The translations under genes and the position numbers were made by a program. Under the pieces are notes generated by a model. It searched no databases. It was not told the DNA's origin and saw only the letters and a program-made list of their open reading frames with translations. Below, piece by piece: positions 1,855 through 25,458 of a DNA stretch of 27,498 bases. Each line of letters starts with the position of its first letter. Position 1 is the stretch's first letter. Source of the stretch: Solirubrobacterales bacterium (GTDB taxonomy: Bacteria > Actinomycetota > Thermoleophilia > Solirubrobacterales > 70-9); contig DASUIY010000059.1 of NCBI GenBank assembly GCA_036279555.1, forward strand, positions 1 through 27,498, read 5' to 3'.

Positions 1855-1857
1855 GCC

Positions 1858-3240
1858 ATGCCCCTGCTCGACGCCCTCCCACTTGCGGCGTCGCAGTCCA
1901 ACCTGCTCGCCGCGCGCGAGCTGATGGCCTTCACCCTCGCCTTCCACATCGTTCTCGCCTGCATCGGCGTCGCTCTGCCGGCGATCATCCTCACCGCCAA
2001 CTGGCTTGGGCTGCGGCGCGGTGACGAGGACGCGATGCGGCTGGCGCGGCGCTGGTCGAAGGCGATGGCGGTGACCTTCGCCGTCGGCGCCGTCACCGGC
2101 ACCGTGCTCAGCTTCGAGTTCGGCCTGCTCTGGCCGCGCTTCATGGAACGCTTCGGCGACGCCTTCGGCATCGCCTTCGCGATCGAGGGCATCTTCTTCT
2201 TCGTCGAGGCGATCTTCCTCGCGATCTACATCTACGGCTGGAAGCGGCTCGGCGGCTGGGCCCATTTCTGGTCCGGCGTGCCGATGGTGATCACCGGCAT
2301 CGGCGGCGCCTTCTCGGTGGTCGCAGCCAACGCCTGGATGAACCAGCCGCAGGGGTTCACCCTCGACGCCAGCGGAAAGGTGGTCGGCACCGACCCGCTC
2401 GAGGTCCTCTTCAACCCGGCGACCGGATACGAGGTGCCGCACATGATCCTCGCCGCCTACATGGTGGCCGGCTTCCTCGTTGCCTCGATCTACGCGGTCG
2501 GCATGCTGCGCGGCCGGCGCGACCGCCTGCACCGGCTGGGGATGGCGATCCCGCTGACGATCGCCTGCATCGCCACCCCGATCCAGCTTTTCGTCGGCGA
2601 CACCGCCGCGCGGGCGATCGCCGACCACCAGCCCGCCAAGTTCGCGGCGATGGAGTGCATCCAGGAAACCGGCCCCGACCAGACCGAGTACATCGGCGGC
2701 ATCTGCACCGACGACGGCGTCAAGGGCGCGATCCCGATCCCCGGCCTCGACTCCTTCCTGGTCGGCTTCAGCCGCGACACGGTGGTCACCGGCCTCGACC
2801 AGATCCCCGATGACGAGGAGCCGCCGGCCAACACCCTGCTGCACCTCTCCTTCGACGCGATGGTCGGCATCGGCACCGCGCTGATGGGGCTGGCGGCCTG
2901 GTTCGGCTTCGTCTGGTGGCGGCGCCGCGAGCTGCCCCGCACGCCCTGGTTCCTGCGCGCGGTCGCGGTCTCCGGCGTCGCCTCGGTCGTCGCGCTGTGG
3001 TGCGGCTGGATCGTCACCGAGGTCGGCCGCCAGCCCTGGATCGTGCAGGGCTTCATGCGCACCGAGGAAGCGGTCACCGAGGCGGAGGGGATCTGGTTCG
3101 CCTTCGCCGGCGTCCTCGTCCTCTACGCCGGACTGGGGACGACGGCGATCCTCGTCCTCCACACCCTCTCCCGTCGCTGGCGCGAGGAGGACGACGCCGC
3201 CGAGGGTGACACCCCCTACGCCCCGCCACGCACCCCATGA
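1858..3240 (+). CDS. cydA: Cytochrome bd ubiquinol oxidase subunit I
   Basis: 460 aa multi-TM protein with AFH (b595 His), GTVLSFEFG, ANAWMNQP, PHM (b558 His), QPAKFAAME, TEVGRQPW and GFMRT motifs. Confidence 0.95.
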   Translation: MPLLDALPLAASQSNLLAARELMAFTLAFHIVLACIGVALPAIILTANWLGLRRGDEDAMRLARRWSKAMAVTFAVGAVTGTVLSFEFGLLWPRFMERFGDAFGIAFAIEGIFFFVEAIFLAIYIYGWKRLGGWAHFWSGVPMVITGIGGAFSVVAANAWMNQPQGFTLDASGKVVGTDPLEVLFNPATGYEVPHMILAAYMVAGFLVASIYAVGMLRGRRDRLHRLGMAIPLTIACIATPIQLFVGDTAARAIADHQPAKFAAMECIQETGPDQTEYIGGICTDDGVKGAIPIPGLDSFLVGFSRDTVVTGLDQIPDDEEPPANTLLHLSFDAMVGIGTALMGLAAWFGFVWWRRRELPRTPWFLRAVAVSGVASVVALWCGWIVTEVGRQPWIVQGFMRTEEAVTEAEGIWFAFAGVLVLYAGLGTTAILVLHTLSRRWREEDDAAEGDTPYAPPRTP

Positions 3241-3241
3241 T

Positions 3242-3290
3242 GCCGACGGGCCGATTCCGGACGCTATGCGTCCGTTTTAGTCCCGTCGGC
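3242..3290. repeat. Palindromic element, family 1, asymmetric intergenic copy
   Basis: GCCGACGGG(3242-3250)/CCCGTCGGC(3282-3290) and CGGACGC/GCGTCCG stems around a TAT loop. The first 19 nt are identical to 8902-8920. Confidence 0.85.
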
Positions 3291-3304
3291 GGGGAGGTTG
3301 GGGG

Positions 3305-7253: not shown

Positions 7254-9659
7254 TTACGGTGCTTCTTCTGCCTCGTACCAGTCGACCCAGCCGTTGCAGG
7301 ATTTGCTTAGCGGGACGATCCGGTGCGGCCGGTCGGGGGTCGCGACCAGCTCGCCCAGGGTCGCCTTGCCCGAGTACCCGGTGAGGCGCTGCAGCGTGCT
7401 CGGCTCATCGGCCGTGACGGTGAACCGGACCGCCCCGCCGTCGCTGCGGATCTTCCCGGCGGGCCAGAACTGGCCGTTGCTGGCGAGGCTGATCGTGGTC
7501 GGCCGCTGACCGTCCTGGGCGGCCTTCAGCGGCTGTCGCAGGCCCGGGGCGGAGAGGGTCAGGCCGAAGGGCGAGAAGTACTGCAGCGAGAGGAGCCAGT
7601 CTCCGGCCGGGAGGGCGAGGGCCTGCGATGCGCTCTCGCCGGTCTCCAGCTCCGGTTCGGGGCTCCAGCGCCCCTTGCCGCCGATCGCGGCACCGGGGAA
7701 GAGCGAGGCGCGACCGGGGTTGGCGGTGAGTATCTGCAGCTCGGGAGCTGTGCAATCGGCGTGTGCCGCCGGCTCGGTCCCCTCCAGCAGCACGTGGCGG
7801 TCGGCCGGCAACGGCCCCGTTCTCTTCCAGAGAAGGTATGAGGGCGTCGCCGCGACGCGCCTGAAGCCCCGCGGCGCTTCGCTGTTCCAGGCCGCCCGCC
7901 CGGTGATCACGTAGGGGAAGCGCGCGAGGGTGGCCTGGGAGAAGGAGTCGAAGTCGATCGGGCTGTAGGCGTCGCCGGTGTCGAACGGCTTCTCGGGGCT
8001 GGCGGTGACCTCGGCGTCGGGGAACTCGACCAGCGGCACGTGCGTGTCGGCCCCCATCAGCTCGTGGGCGGCGTAGCGGTCCTGACCCGCGTATAGGACA
8101 GGCTCCCCCTGGACGACGGGCATGAACGCCTGCAGCTCCGCGCCGTGCCCCGGCGGCCCGACCGGCGCGTCCCGCAGCACGAGCAGGCTCGAGTACACGG
8201 CCCCCGCCACGAACGCCACCGCCAGCACCCCCCAGCCAACCCTCGCCACCCCCGCCGATGGGCCGATTCCGGCCGATATTCGGCCGGAATCGGCCCATCG
8301 GCGGCCAAAGGCGCCGCCGAGCTCGAAAAGGAGGGGGCGGATCGCGACGAGCATCGCCAGCGGGGCGGCGATCATCAGCGCCTTGGCCTGGGAGTACTCA
8401 CCACTGGTGGCGAGTGAGGCGAGATAGAGGATCGTGCAGGCAGCGAGCGCGACCGGGATGGAGAACTCCCGTCGTCGCAGCCACCAGGCGGTTCCCAGGA
8501 CGACGGCGAGCACCCCGATCGCGCCCGCCAGGCCGGTCAGGTGTGCGCCTCCGGCCGCGCTGAGCCGGTAGTTGGAGGCCGGCCAGACGCCGAGCGCCTC
8601 CAGCGGCGAGACCGGCCCGTAGGTGTTGGTGCCGGCGACGCGGTTGAAGCCGTGGACGAAGGCGAAGGGCCCGACCAGCATCAGCGTCACCGTCAGGCCG
8701 CCGAGCACGACGATCGCCAGCAGCAGCTTCGGCCGCAGCAGGGTGCGGGCCAGCCGGGCCGGCCTCAGCTCGGCACGGATCTCGGGCACGGTCGCCGCCC
8801 AGAAGACGAGGATCGCAACCGGCCAGGCAAGCCCGGCGAAGCTGTAGGAGAAGAAGATCCCCCCGGCGAGCGCCAGCGGCACCAGCACCCACCACCACCC
8901 CGCCGACGGGCCGATTCCGGTCCATATTCGACCGGAATCGGCCCGTCGGCGGTCGAGGTCGAAGAGGTAGACGGCGAAGGCGAGGACGAAGAGGGCCTCG
9001 GCGGTCTCCTTGAAGGTGCCCTGGGCGTAGTAGGAGGCGCCGAGGTAGGTGATCGCCACCAGCGTCGCGGCTGCCACCCGGCGGCCGGGCCCGAGGTCGC
9101 CGAGGGCCACGAGCGCGGTCAGCGCGGTCAGCACCCCTATCGCCAGGATCTCTCCGACGAATGCCTGGCCGAGGCCGATGCCCGGCAGCACGGCGACCGT
9201 GTCGGCGAGCGCGTGGGGCCCAAGCGGATAGCCCGCTTCCGGCGTCGGGCCGAGGCCGCTGCGCAGCCACTCGGCCCAGGCCAGGTGCAGCCCGAGGTCG
9301 TTGTTGAAGCCGACGCCCAGCAGCCCCCAGCGCCCGCTGATCGCAAAGGGGATCGAGAGGACCAGGGCGACGACGAAGGCGACGAGGATGCCCAGCCAGA
9401 TCGAGCCCTCGGTGCGTCCGGGGCGCCGCCAGAGCACCAGCGCCGCCACGGCGACCAGGGCGGTCGCGCCCAGCGCCGCGCTGGTCGCGTGCCCCGGGGC
9501 CCGGGCGAGGAAGCCCGTGACCGTGATCATCGCCCCGAAGCCGACCGCAGGCGCCAGCCAGCTGCGCGAGCCGCCCTCCCCCGCGAGGCTGAGGATTGCG
9601 CGTCCCACCAGCATGGAGGCGGCGCAGATCAGCGCCGCCGCGACGTAGGTCCCGATCAT
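7254..9659 (-). CDS. Polytopic membrane protein with C-terminal extracytoplasmic domain (possibly GT-C-like glycosyltransferase; function uncertain)
   Basis: 801 aa with about 12-14 hydrophobic segments, an early NNDLGLH loop and a soluble C-terminal region. The GT-C call rests on topology only. Confidence 0.75.
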   Translation of the reverse strand: MIGTYVAAALICAASMLVGRAILSLAGEGGSRSWLAPAVGFGAMITVTGFLARAPGHATSAALGATALVAVAALVLWRRPGRTEGSIWLGILVAFVVALVLSIPFAISGRWGLLGVGFNNDLGLHLAWAEWLRSGLGPTPEAGYPLGPHALADTVAVLPGIGLGQAFVGEILAIGVLTALTALVALGDLGPGRRVAAATLVAITYLGASYYAQGTFKETAEALFVLAFAVYLFDLDRRRADSGRIWTGIGPSAGWWWVLVPLALAGGIFFSYSFAGLAWPVAILVFWAATVPEIRAELRPARLARTLLRPKLLLAIVVLGGLTVTLMLVGPFAFVHGFNRVAGTNTYGPVSPLEALGVWPASNYRLSAAGGAHLTGLAGAIGVLAVVLGTAWWLRRREFSIPVALAACTILYLASLATSGEYSQAKALMIAAPLAMLVAIRPLLFELGGAFGRRWADSGRISAGIGPSAGVARVGWGVLAVAFVAGAVYSSLLVLRDAPVGPPGHGAELQAFMPVVQGEPVLYAGQDRYAAHELMGADTHVPLVEFPDAEVTASPEKPFDTGDAYSPIDFDSFSQATLARFPYVITGRAAWNSEAPRGFRRVAATPSYLLWKRTGPLPADRHVLLEGTEPAAHADCTAPELQILTANPGRASLFPGAAIGGKGRWSPEPELETGESASQALALPAGDWLLSLQYFSPFGLTLSAPGLRQPLKAAQDGQRPTTISLASNGQFWPAGKIRSDGGAVRFTVTADEPSTLQRLTGYSGKATLGELVATPDRPHRIVPLSKSCNGWVDWYEAEEAP
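8252..8304. repeat. Palindromic element, family 1, in-frame coding copy 1
   Basis: Perfect 25-bp stem (8252-8276/8280-8304) with a TAT loop. Encodes RRWADSGRISAGIGPSA on the minus strand. Confidence 0.95.
8900..8952. repeat. Palindromic element, family 1, in-frame coding copy 2
   Basis: Perfect 23-bp arms (8900-8922/8930-8952), centre CATATTC. Encodes RRRADSGRIWTGIGPSA on the minus strand. Confidence 0.95.
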
Positions 9660-13275: not shown

Positions 13276-13365
13276 GGAGAGGTGTCCGAGTGGCTTAAGG
13301 AGCGCGACTGGAAATCGCGTGGGCGGGGTTAACCCGCCTCGTGGGTTCGAATCCCACCCTCTCCG
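13276..13365 (+). tRNA. tRNA-Ser(GGA)
   Basis: Acceptor GGAGAGG/CCTCTCC, anticodon arm CGCGA-CTGGAAA-TCGCG, long variable arm, T-arm GTGGG-TTCGAAT-CCCAC, G73. CCA not encoded. Confidence 0.96.
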
Positions 13366-21859: not shown

Positions 21860-21946
21860 GGAGGGGTGCCGGAGTGGTTGAACGGGGCAGTCTCGAAAAC
21901 TGTTGGCGTCGCAAGGCGCTCGTGGGTTCGAATCCCACCCCCTCCG
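21860..21946 (+). tRNA. tRNA-Ser(CGA)
   Basis: Acceptor GGAGGGG/CCCCTCC, anticodon loop CTCGAAA, long variable arm GGCGTC-GCAA-GGCGC, T-loop TTCGAAT, G73. Confidence 0.95.
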
Positions 21947-22552: not shown

Positions 22553-22596
22553 GATTGAACGATTGACCCACGTATAGGGGGGTCAATCGTTCAATC
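22553..22596. repeat. Palindromic element, family 2, copy A (contains the stop codon of the AbiEi/DUF559 gene)
   Basis: 17-bp perfect arms GATTGAACGATTGACCC (22553-22569)/GGGTCAATCGTTCAATC (22580-22596), centre ACGTATAGGG. Confidence 0.9.
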
Positions 22597-23529
22597 TCCT
22601 CGCTTGCGCGCAAGGGCTGCCGTTTGCCTCAACCTGGCGCGGGCGTAACCAGGTTCGAAGCGGATCTGCGCGTGCGAGAAGCGCAGGGGAAGCAGGCCGG
22701 AAGCCACGTGGGCCTGGTCCCTCAGGAGTCCCCGCGTCTGCTGCGAAGGGGTGCGGTGATAGCGCAGCCCGTCAGTCTCGACGACGATGCCGAGCTCCGG
22801 CCAGTTGAAGTCGACTTCGAAGCCGTTGACCCGGGCTTTCGTCTCCGGCTCCGGAAGACCGGCCGCCCGGGCCAGCGGCCGGAAGCGCAGCTCCAGGTCG
22901 GAGTCGCTCAAACGGAAGGTGCGTCGATCGAGGATCGCTCGCAGCAGCGCGACTCCCGGCTGCCCGCCGTGACGCTCGAGTGCCGCGCGCAGCGTCTCGG
23001 GATCGACCCGGTCGAGCTTGTCGGCCTCGTTGACCGCGCGCTCCAGCTGCATCGGTCGCAGTCGGGTCGCCTCGTCGATCAGCGTGCGGGCCGGGCCGGT
23101 TACCGGAACGCCTTCGTGCGCGGTCAGCTCCTCCGGCAGCAGGGCAGTGCGCCGGTGCACGCGAATCCCGGCGTGGCGGCGGCGGATCGCGGCAGGCACC
23201 GAGACTTCGATCAACCCCTGCGACTCCGCGCCGAAACCCCACAGGGCCGCGGCGCTGTCGTGGCTCAGCACCGCCTCTGGGCCACAGGCCAGCGCTGCCG
23301 CCATCCACCGCCCCAGCCTGCTCAGCTGCGGCCTGCCGACCGCGTATACCCCTCGCCAGACCGGGTGCAGCCGTCCGGTGGCGATCCGCCTCTCGATTTG
23401 GCGCGCCCCGAGCCCCATCTCCAGTAGCTGCCTTCGCGCCACCACACCGTGCTGGCGGTTCACCAGGGCCCATATCTCTGCGTCCCGACCCCGGCGATTA
23501 TCCGGCGACCGGTCGATTGACCCACCCAT
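22591..23529 (-). CDS. AbiEi-antitoxin-like N-terminal domain plus DUF559/Vsr-like PD-(D/E)xK endonuclease domain protein
   Basis: N-terminal QHGVVARRQLL...GRLHPVWRGVYAVG and VLSHDSAAALWG. C-terminal SDLELRF...VDFNWPELGIVVETDGLRYH...RD...GLLPLRF. Exact start uncertain. Confidence 0.85.
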   Translation of the reverse strand: MGGSIDRSPDNRRGRDAEIWALVNRQHGVVARRQLLEMGLGARQIERRIATGRLHPVWRGVYAVGRPQLSRLGRWMAAALACGPEAVLSHDSAAALWGFGAESQGLIEVSVPAAIRRRHAGIRVHRRTALLPEELTAHEGVPVTGPARTLIDEATRLRPMQLERAVNEADKLDRVDPETLRAALERHGGQPGVALLRAILDRRTFRLSDSDLELRFRPLARAAGLPEPETKARVNGFEVDFNWPELGIVVETDGLRYHRTPSQQTRGLLRDQAHVASGLLPLRFSHAQIRFEPGYARARLRQTAALARKRGD

Positions 23530-23550
23530 ACGGTGGTAAAGGGTTCAGCG
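23507..23550. repeat. Palindromic element, family 2, copy B (degenerate; contains the predicted ATG of the AbiEi/DUF559 gene)
   Basis: Ungapped match to copy A at 30 of 44 nt, including an identical CGATTGACCCAC. Residual stem CCACC/GGTGG around CATAC. Confidence 0.7.
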
Positions 23551-25362: not shown

Positions 25363-25458
25363 GCGCCCGTAGCTCAGTGGTCAACGGGGTTTTAACGAGC
25401 CCCAAAGAGCGCCGGTCTTTCAAGCCGGAGGTCGAGAGTTCGATTCTCTCCGGGCGCA
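25363..25458 (+). tRNA. Atypical tRNA, anticodon TTC (nominally Glu), with a hairpin inserted in the D-loop
   Basis: Acceptor GCGCCCG/CGGGCGC, D-stem GCTC/GAGC, anticodon arm CCGGT-CTTTCAA-GCCGG, variable AGGTC, T-arm GAGAG-TTCGATT-CTCTC, A73. There are 25 nt between G19 and A21. Confidence 0.8.

Follow-up and report, generated by a model that had tools for sequence, protein, structure and literature searches.

A genus-specific palindromic repeat in frame within a predicted GT-C glycosyltransferase gene of Solirubrobacterales and its association with an AbiEi_4/DUF559 nuclease-like gene

Results

Two in-frame palindromes in a membrane-protein gene

The DNA analysed here, referred to below as the window, comprises positions 1 to 27,498 of contig DASUIY010000059.1 from a Solirubrobacterales bacterium (assembly GCA_036279555.1; G000 in our genome set), a 2.25-Mb metagenome-assembled genome (MAG) of 403 contigs with 69% GC and 85% completeness. 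On the minus strand of the window, positions 7254..9659 encode an 801-amino-acid membrane protein with a GT-C fold according to AlphaFold and Foldseek, and this open reading frame (ORF) contains two 53-bp palindromes, which are the subject of this work. Read on the minus strand, the palindrome at 8900..8952 (site 1) has 23-bp arms and a 7-nt loop and gives the predicted translation RRRADSGRIWTGIGPSA at amino acids 237-253 of the host protein; that at 8252..8304 (site 2) has 25-bp arms and a 3-nt loop and gives RRWADSGRISAGIGPSA at amino acids 453-469. In both cases, the arms are 100% complementary. The two palindromes are read in one and the same frame, and the ORF stays open through both, in agreement with the first-pass annotation, which had placed two in-frame palindromes in this gene.

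The same annotation had claimed that paired substitutions preserve the palindromy, and this was also seen: the site-1 and site-2 copies differ at 5 of 53 positions, and four of these differences form two compensatory pairs, at positions 8/46 (T-A vs. C-G) and 22/32 (C-G vs. T-A). The fifth, at position 24, results in the wider loop. The calculated RNA folding energies of the two hairpins were -58.9 and -57.2 kcal/mol (z = -8.4 and -7.7), and a 37-nt core pattern had no match in 100 dinucleotide shuffles of the window. The 75 nt around the two in-gene copies are 81% identical to each other.

The hairpins were evaluated as possible assembly artefacts at inverted repeats. An independent Logan contig of sequencing run X1 covers 8213-8363, and thus site 2, with zero differences, and hairpins at both sites are present in dozens of independent assemblies, single-contig genomes included. 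Therefore, an assembly artefact was ruled out. Site 1 was not bridged in run X1, the contigs of which end at the repeat. In another run, X3, a single low-depth contig seems to link 8260 with 9116 through 4 other letters; no other record supports this link, which may reflect either a deletion variant or an artefact of the graph at the repeat. Hairpin repeats do fragment MAG assemblies inside genes: in G171 (G171:C28 and G171:C93) and G153 (G153:C9), the glycosyltransferase orthologue is divided between contigs or matched only in pieces, with breaks in or close to the hairpin sites, the query residues at these breaks being about 244/473 and 256/502.

The host protein is a predicted GT-C glycosyltransferase

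A Pfam search of the 801-amino-acid protein gave zero matches. A first AlphaFold model from a shallow alignment had a predicted local distance difference test (pLDDT) score of 44 and was unusable; a more diverse alignment was used instead and gave a model with a pLDDT of 81 and a predicted template modelling (pTM) score of 0.83. This model contains about 15 transmembrane (TM) helices and a C-terminal beta-sandwich domain, and with it Foldseek retrieved the GT-C glycosyltransferases AftD, EmbA/B/C, AglB, PglB, AftA, and ArnT (for AftD, EmbB, AglB, PglB, and AftA, probability 1.0, E values down to 3e-7, and TM scores of 0.3-0.4). Asp121, which is invariant in the alignment, sits in a long early loop. 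As modelled, the host protein is a GT-C glycosyltransferase by its multi-TM fold, its extracytoplasmic C-terminal domain, and the Asp residue in an early outer loop.

The hairpin-encoded peptides are two of the few segments of the model with a pLDDT below 50 (residues 244-252 and 458-469). Each lies between TM helices, which bears out the earlier description of two near-identical peptides in loops between hydrophobic segments. Both loops are disordered and Arg-rich, and each hairpin adds about 17 residues to the predicted protein. Because of the helix alternation counted from the extracytoplasmic C-terminal domain and because of the positive-inside rule, both loops are probably cytoplasmic.

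Membership of the palindromes in a dispersed, genus-specific repeat family

The two palindromes are members of a repeat family, here called family A, with the 53-bp consensus CCG-CCGAYGGGCC-N27-GGCCCRTCGG-CGG and the ends CCGCCGAYGGGCC / GGCCCRTCGGCGG. About 26 copies were found in G000, with 0 matches to a reversed-pattern control, and the flanks of the copies are unrelated outside the element. The exact pattern occurred in 48 of the 61 sampled genomes of the genus (1-64 copies each), again with 0 matches to the reversed pattern. Among 150 other genomes of the order, only one from the nearest genus, G133, had several copies (4); two further genomes had one pattern match each, neither of them a hairpin. 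A third copy in the window, at 3240..3292, begins 2 nt past the stop codon of the ORF 1855-3240(+) and has intact outer stems and an asymmetric inner part.

The outer stems are conserved across the genus, which partly reflects the search pattern, as it fixed the outer stems. The inner stem is genome-specific and common to many copies within one genome, for example GATTCCGGYCG and TGAAACG in G000, TAAAACGGGAC in G154, and GATTTCCCACG/GAAAACCCACG in G192. When 62 distinct copies were compared, each inner-stem position showed between two and four types of Watson-Crick pair, and pairing amounted to 66-89%. The paired substitutions between site 1 and site 2 are real, but they correspond to variants that recur throughout the family (a Y/R dimorphism in the outer stem, and covariation in the inner one) and need not have arisen in this gene. 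Half-units with an A-run or a T-run combine freely into homo- and hetero-pairs (GATTTC and GAAAAC types), so that family A behaves as a head-to-head dimer of two half-units, like the REPINs formed from repetitive extragenic palindromic (REP) sequences.

The two loop sites are shared within the genus and turn over

The loop sites were compared within the genus in 120 close homologues and 31 genomic loci, and with orthologues from other genera (35-62% identity). The latter have short loops without a hairpin at either site, as the first-pass annotation expected of relatives. Within the genus, both loops hold RRRA-x9-GPSA peptides with unrelated middles, or peptides from other hairpin families. 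In the DNA, these peptides correspond to strong hairpins, read in frame, that fall into at least four families: family A, of the form CCGACGGGCC...; family B, which contains GGGACGTGCCGGGACTTAGGC... and is found on site 1 in three species; family C, which contains GGTCGCAGTTCCCGCCGC...; and family D, which contains GTTCGCCTTTTGTC.... The insertion points of different families in one loop are offset by a few codons. The same variant occupies both sites in G000, L036 (in which the two copies differ by a single nucleotide), P0030, P0032, and P0114.

The site-1 register is identical across deep branches of the genus, and the sister genus shares it. Non-palindromic peptides at these positions were found only as decayed family-A copies in that register: in L045 and in the sister-genus (outgroup) locus L007, 22 of 26 arm bases remain and the 27-nt spacing is unchanged. 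The observation that the first-pass annotation had named as refuting, orthologues of distant taxa with these peptides but without palindromy, was not encountered. L045 and L050-L056 are among the many orthologues in which one site or both have decayed or been cleanly deleted; in locus L053, which lacks 45 nt relative to its sisters L048 and L049, a remnant GRR|SA is left. A gene tree of 33 genomes with both sites masked requires a minimum of 6 changes of state for site 1 and of 14 for site 2. Contigs of related strains from public soil runs vary in the same places: the inner stem at site 1 differs in one of them, and 113 other letters replace the 59 nt around the site-2 hairpin in a related-strain contig. 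Nested or tandem arrangements also occur: a family-A copy lies inside another A-like copy at site 2 of L062, and a double family-C element is present at site 2 of L037 and L039.

Because most congeners carry hairpin peptides at these positions with a different inner sequence or of a different family, and some carry decayed or deleted ones, the sites are, as judged from these comparisons, old and turning over, and do not represent two recent private insertions. In this respect the first-pass inference needs refinement, as the segments are not private to G000.

Family-A copies elsewhere in the genome and their turnover

By crude gene calls based on GC at third codon positions, which are approximate, eight family-A copies in G000 begin 2-14 nt past a stop codon, two between convergent genes. 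With respect to intrinsic terminators, in which a GC-rich hairpin and then a T tract lie downstream of a gene, TTT(T) was found within 16 nt on one side of about 12 of 26 copies, and many copies follow stop codons; a T tract is absent from both in-gene copies. With respect to MITEs, which have terminal inverted repeats and a target-site duplication and derive from an IS element, direct-repeat duplication was not visible in the flanks of family-A copies nor at empty sites, and no parent IS was identified.

About five or six copies in G000 lie in frame inside genes. Besides those in the glycosyltransferase, such copies were found in a class-I aminoacyl-tRNA synthetase of the valyl-tRNA synthetase (ValRS) type, between the catalytic and the anticodon-binding domains, and in genes for a GT87 membrane glycosyltransferase, an FAD-oxidase/Fer4/CCG protein, and a GATase_5 protein. 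In these four genes, there are Pfam domains on both sides of the copy. Copies on contigs C9, C212, and C378 were not counted as intragenic, as they may lie upstream of the true start codons. The intragenic copies use all three reading frames. In the frame used by the host gene (RRRA...GPSA), the TGAAAC/TAAAAC subfamilies would put a stop codon right after RRRA, and these subfamilies were never seen in the host gene; it is this stop that ends the partner gene described below. With a dispersed palindromic family, in-frame copies in further genes in all three frames, and orthologues that lack them, the proposal of a phenomenon like that of the Rickettsia palindromic elements (RPEs) in an actinobacterium is upheld.

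Three other family-A sites of G000 were compared with five close relatives. At a junction just past a stop codon on contig C38 (G000:C38:1978-2024; L119/L126-L130), family A is present in G000, there is no hairpin in G171, G175, and G173, and unrelated hairpins are present in G184 (AACTGCATCAACTT...AAGTTGATGCAGTT) and, of yet another sequence, in G204 (GGTGCAACGC...GCGTTGCACC). On contig C51, the spacer between convergent genes is empty in G173, and in four genomes it holds a family-A copy, no two of these with the same inner stem. Here G184 carries GATACGTCAAGG, the variant that brackets its own nuclease-like gene (described below). The ValRS linker has family A in four genomes, G184 again with its own variant GATACGTCAAGG, and in G175 and G204 (L138, L140) it has about 72 nt of a different hairpin-forming sequence (GCGGCAGGAACTTGGTCCTGCC... 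and GATTGATCTTGCT...AGCAAGATCAATC). The variant GATACGTCAAGG is also found at site 2 of the glycosyltransferase in G184. Because these three sites behave alike, the re-occupation of fixed sites by different hairpins is general and not peculiar to the glycosyltransferase gene.

In the convergent-gene spacer of G175, there is a 1.5-kb insertion (L134:1-1500; G175:C1:1069749-1071248), the translation of which resembles YD/RHS-type repeats. It was considered as a nuclease gene and rejected, as it has no match to the nuclease-like proteins.

A search of the window with Rfam at gathering thresholds returned only tRNAs, at 25363-25458 (96 nt, unusually long), 13276-13365 (90 nt), and 21860-21946 (87 nt).

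An AbiEi_4/DUF559 gene is bracketed by family A

Family A is physically and statistically tied to one gene, that of protein P0121 on contig C74 of G000, which has an AbiEi_4 winged-helix domain and a DUF559/MTES_1575 Vsr-like nuclease domain. A search of PDB sequences with P0121 gave zero matches. The family-A palindromes that bracket the gene are of the GATTCCGG/GATTGCGG type, the subfamily to which the two in-gene copies also belong. These palindromes overlap the start and stop codons of the gene, and its frame ends, with ...PRRRA-stop, inside the downstream hairpin. Orthologues (54-93% identity) were found in 20 genomes of the genus, G000 included. It was found that family A is at the edge of the gene in 20 of 20 orthologues, and on both sides in 19 of 20, the inner stem being each genome's own. 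In G202 (L090), the nuclease-like gene is flanked on each side by two family-A copies in tandem.

Genomes with the orthologue had a median of 23.5 family-A copies (n = 22, a group that counts G192 and G193, in which the matches are truncated or partial), and for those without, the median was 2 (n = 39, of which thirteen had no copy; Mann-Whitney p = 3e-9, the genomes not being phylogenetically independent). In phylogenetically independent pairs, 6-7 of 10 pointed in the same direction and 0 in the opposite one (p about 0.03).

Paralogues at 40-48% identity have no flanking family A. A paralogue lies in the window, at 22591..23529 on the minus strand: it encodes P0122, an AbiEi-like/nuclease-like protein with 42% identity to P0121, and its start and stop carry palindromes of a different family (about 22553-22597 and 23500-23547). 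G000 holds seven paralogues of this gene. All have a strong palindrome at the start, and where the gene is not interrupted by a contig end, a related palindrome is usually found at the stop as well. In five of the seven (C317, C342, C30, C185, and C163), a purine-rich motif, GGGGGAGAA or GGGGGGCGAAA, is upstream of the start-side palindrome. In G154, the 18 copies of family B include copies at both ends of another nuclease-like paralogue there. A search of G000, which is 85% complete, for a transposase of the Y1 type, the class of the REP-associated tyrosine transposases (RAYTs; PF01797), gave zero matches. Taken together, the bracketing, co-occurrence, and co-variation with family A point to the AbiEi_4/DUF559 gene as its likely partner.

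Discussion

We interpret the two palindromes as non-autonomous copies of a genus-specific, REPIN-like repeat that came to lie in frame in loops of a GT-C glycosyltransferase, with the AbiEi_4/DUF559 gene as the cognate partner and with existing hairpin sites re-occupied or converted. We put the probability of this interpretation at roughly 0.7. We infer how the hairpins may move from genome comparison: the nuclease-like protein would bind its cognate palindrome and mobilise or convert copies, as RAYT does for REPs; existing hairpin sites would be preferred targets or be converted in place, so that position and frame are kept and the sequence is replaced; and only those copies in permissive loops and stop-free frames would survive, selection removing the others. 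A broader proposal, to which we give somewhat less than even odds, is that the paralogous AbiEi_4/DUF559 nucleases may each propagate a palindrome family of their own, and that hairpins may replace or convert one another at fixed sites, in-frame ones in essential genes (ValRS) included.

Several points weigh against this interpretation. Mobility is read from a comparison of genomes, the role of the nuclease-like protein is putative, and the presence of the hairpin peptides in the mature protein is a prediction. Six genomes (G160, G182, G173, G174, G175, and G186) have 11-22 family-A copies, 21-22 in G160 and G182, and the orthologue was not detected in them, although three or four of the six are incomplete. 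The in-gene copies match the genome's own bracket variant only in G000, in G184 (site 2), and partly in G152 and G202. In the loci fetched, families C and D were not found beside a paralogue: neither of the two copies of family C in G173 is next to one, and the eight family-D loci examined had no nuclease neighbour. AbiEi-type proteins, the antitoxins of type IV toxin-antitoxin systems, are autorepressors that bind inverted repeats in their own promoter, and so the bracketing palindromes could be operators and not transposition ends. The few-codon offsets between families would also fit selection for permissive sites as well as they fit targeting.

The main rival is an account in which selfish or terminator-like repeats insert at random and persist only in tolerated places, independent insertions accumulating in the two loops, the ValRS linker, and the gene ends, there is no targeting or conversion, and the palindromes at the AbiEi_4/DUF559 gene are its operators. 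Because families enter the same loop a few codons apart and not at one nucleotide, and because some genomes have many copies without having the gene, this account stays alive; the disordered, Arg-rich and therefore likely permissive character of both loops and the frequent mismatch between in-gene copies and bracket variants fit it too. We nevertheless regard it as rather unlikely: where family A occupies orthologous positions, the copies have the inner stem of the genome they are in (GATACGTCAAGG of G184 at three sites), deep branches and the sister genus share one register at site 1, copy number and presence of the gene go together in independent pairs, and every orthologue has family A at its edge. 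Selection for stem-loops in mRNA or DNA, which would pause transcription or translation between blocks of TM helices or set mRNA stability, could explain why positions are conserved across the genus, why complementarity is kept while sequence changes, and why the stems are so stable. However, the hairpins have decayed or been cleanly deleted in many orthologues and are absent from other genera, these families are also scattered over unrelated loci and behave no differently in ValRS or between genes, and unrelated families substitute for each other, which together make such a function very improbable. Even less credit can be given to a repeat at the protein level, an internal duplication of a loop motif with incidental palindromy, or to an assembly artefact. 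The similarity of the two peptides and of the 75 nt around them would suit a duplication, but the 53-bp unit is also found in non-coding DNA and in other frames of other genes and the flanks are unrelated beyond it, and internal gene duplication was rejected for these reasons; independent assemblies and the exact bridging contig confirm the sequence itself.

In relation to known systems, the repeat described here combines features of several. Palindromic repeats that are read in frame are familiar chiefly from Rickettsia and from a scattering of REPs. RPEs, which were reportedly described by Ogata et al. in 2000, form the families RPE-1 to RPE-8, with lengths of roughly 100-150 bp. Like RPEs, family A is a dispersed palindromic family in which a sizeable minority of copies is in frame in genes, adding a short peptide in tolerated regions; presence or absence varies among orthologues, and one ORF can hold two copies. 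Unlike RPEs, its unit is an almost perfect palindrome of 53 bp, its host is a free-living, high-GC actinobacterium of the Solirubrobacterales and not a reduced alphaproteobacterium, a candidate partner gene is bracketed by it, and the same sites in genes are re-occupied by several families. Because of the differences in length and host lineage, we do not file family A as an RPE proper and would expect no sequence relation between them.

Similarity to the REP/REPIN-RAYT systems (REPtrons) is seen in the short palindromic units that are arranged head to head and lie mostly just downstream of genes, in the lineage-specific variants, in the flanking of a single-copy gene by the same repeats, and in paralogous genes that each have their own repeat family. 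In contrast to REPtrons, the flanked gene encodes an AbiEi_4 and DUF559/MTES_1575 nuclease-like protein and not a Y1 transposase of the IS200/IS605 type, the palindromes overlap its start and stop codons, and the GTAG tetranucleotide of REPs is absent from the ends of family A. P0121 resembles AbiEi antitoxins in its N-terminal AbiEi_4 winged-helix domain, but it has a Vsr-like nuclease domain as its C-terminus, and its inverted repeat is dispersed genome-wide.

RPEs and intragenic REPs have been discussed together with double insertions in ORFs of R. conorii (PMC3733652). REPs tagged with CGTC have been reported that have no dedicated RAYT, form head-to-head dimers, and also occur inside genes (Di Nocera et al. 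2013, PMC3733652); their unit is a stem-loop with an 8-9-bp stem, a 4-5-nt loop, and a CCA tail (PMC3733652). The outer stem of family A likewise contains CGTC/GACG. However, its half-unit is not itself a stem-loop and its CGTC is 6 nt inside the end, and an assignment of family A to the CGTC-tagged REPs was rejected because the unit architecture differs from that published description.

In full-text searches of the literature, we found no description of palindromic repeats in Solirubrobacterales, nor of DUF559/AbiEi genes partnered with dispersed palindromes. The aspects that seem of greatest interest are the apparent partner other than RAYT and the apparent replacement of hairpins at fixed in-frame sites. 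The phenomenon of in-frame palindromic repeats is now found in a free-living, high-GC soil actinobacterium with an identifiable likely partner gene, and dozens of sequenced congeners show the same protein loops re-occupied by different hairpins.

To our knowledge, no mobilising enzyme is known for RPEs or for REPs of the CGTC type, the enzyme being a RAYT otherwise. The present system makes it possible to test how REP-like elements without RAYT spread, and how proteins tolerate insertions and possibly gain variable loops from them. On the practical side, the hairpins break MAG assemblies exactly inside genes, as in G171 and G153, and the peptides that they encode look hypervariable and could be misread as evidence of diversifying selection. 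If paralogous nucleases do propagate their own palindromes, and hairpins do replace one another at fixed sites, an enzyme class unrelated to RAYTs would be the partner in a REPtron-like system, and the sequences of protein loops would be rewritten repeatedly while the reading frame remains unbroken.

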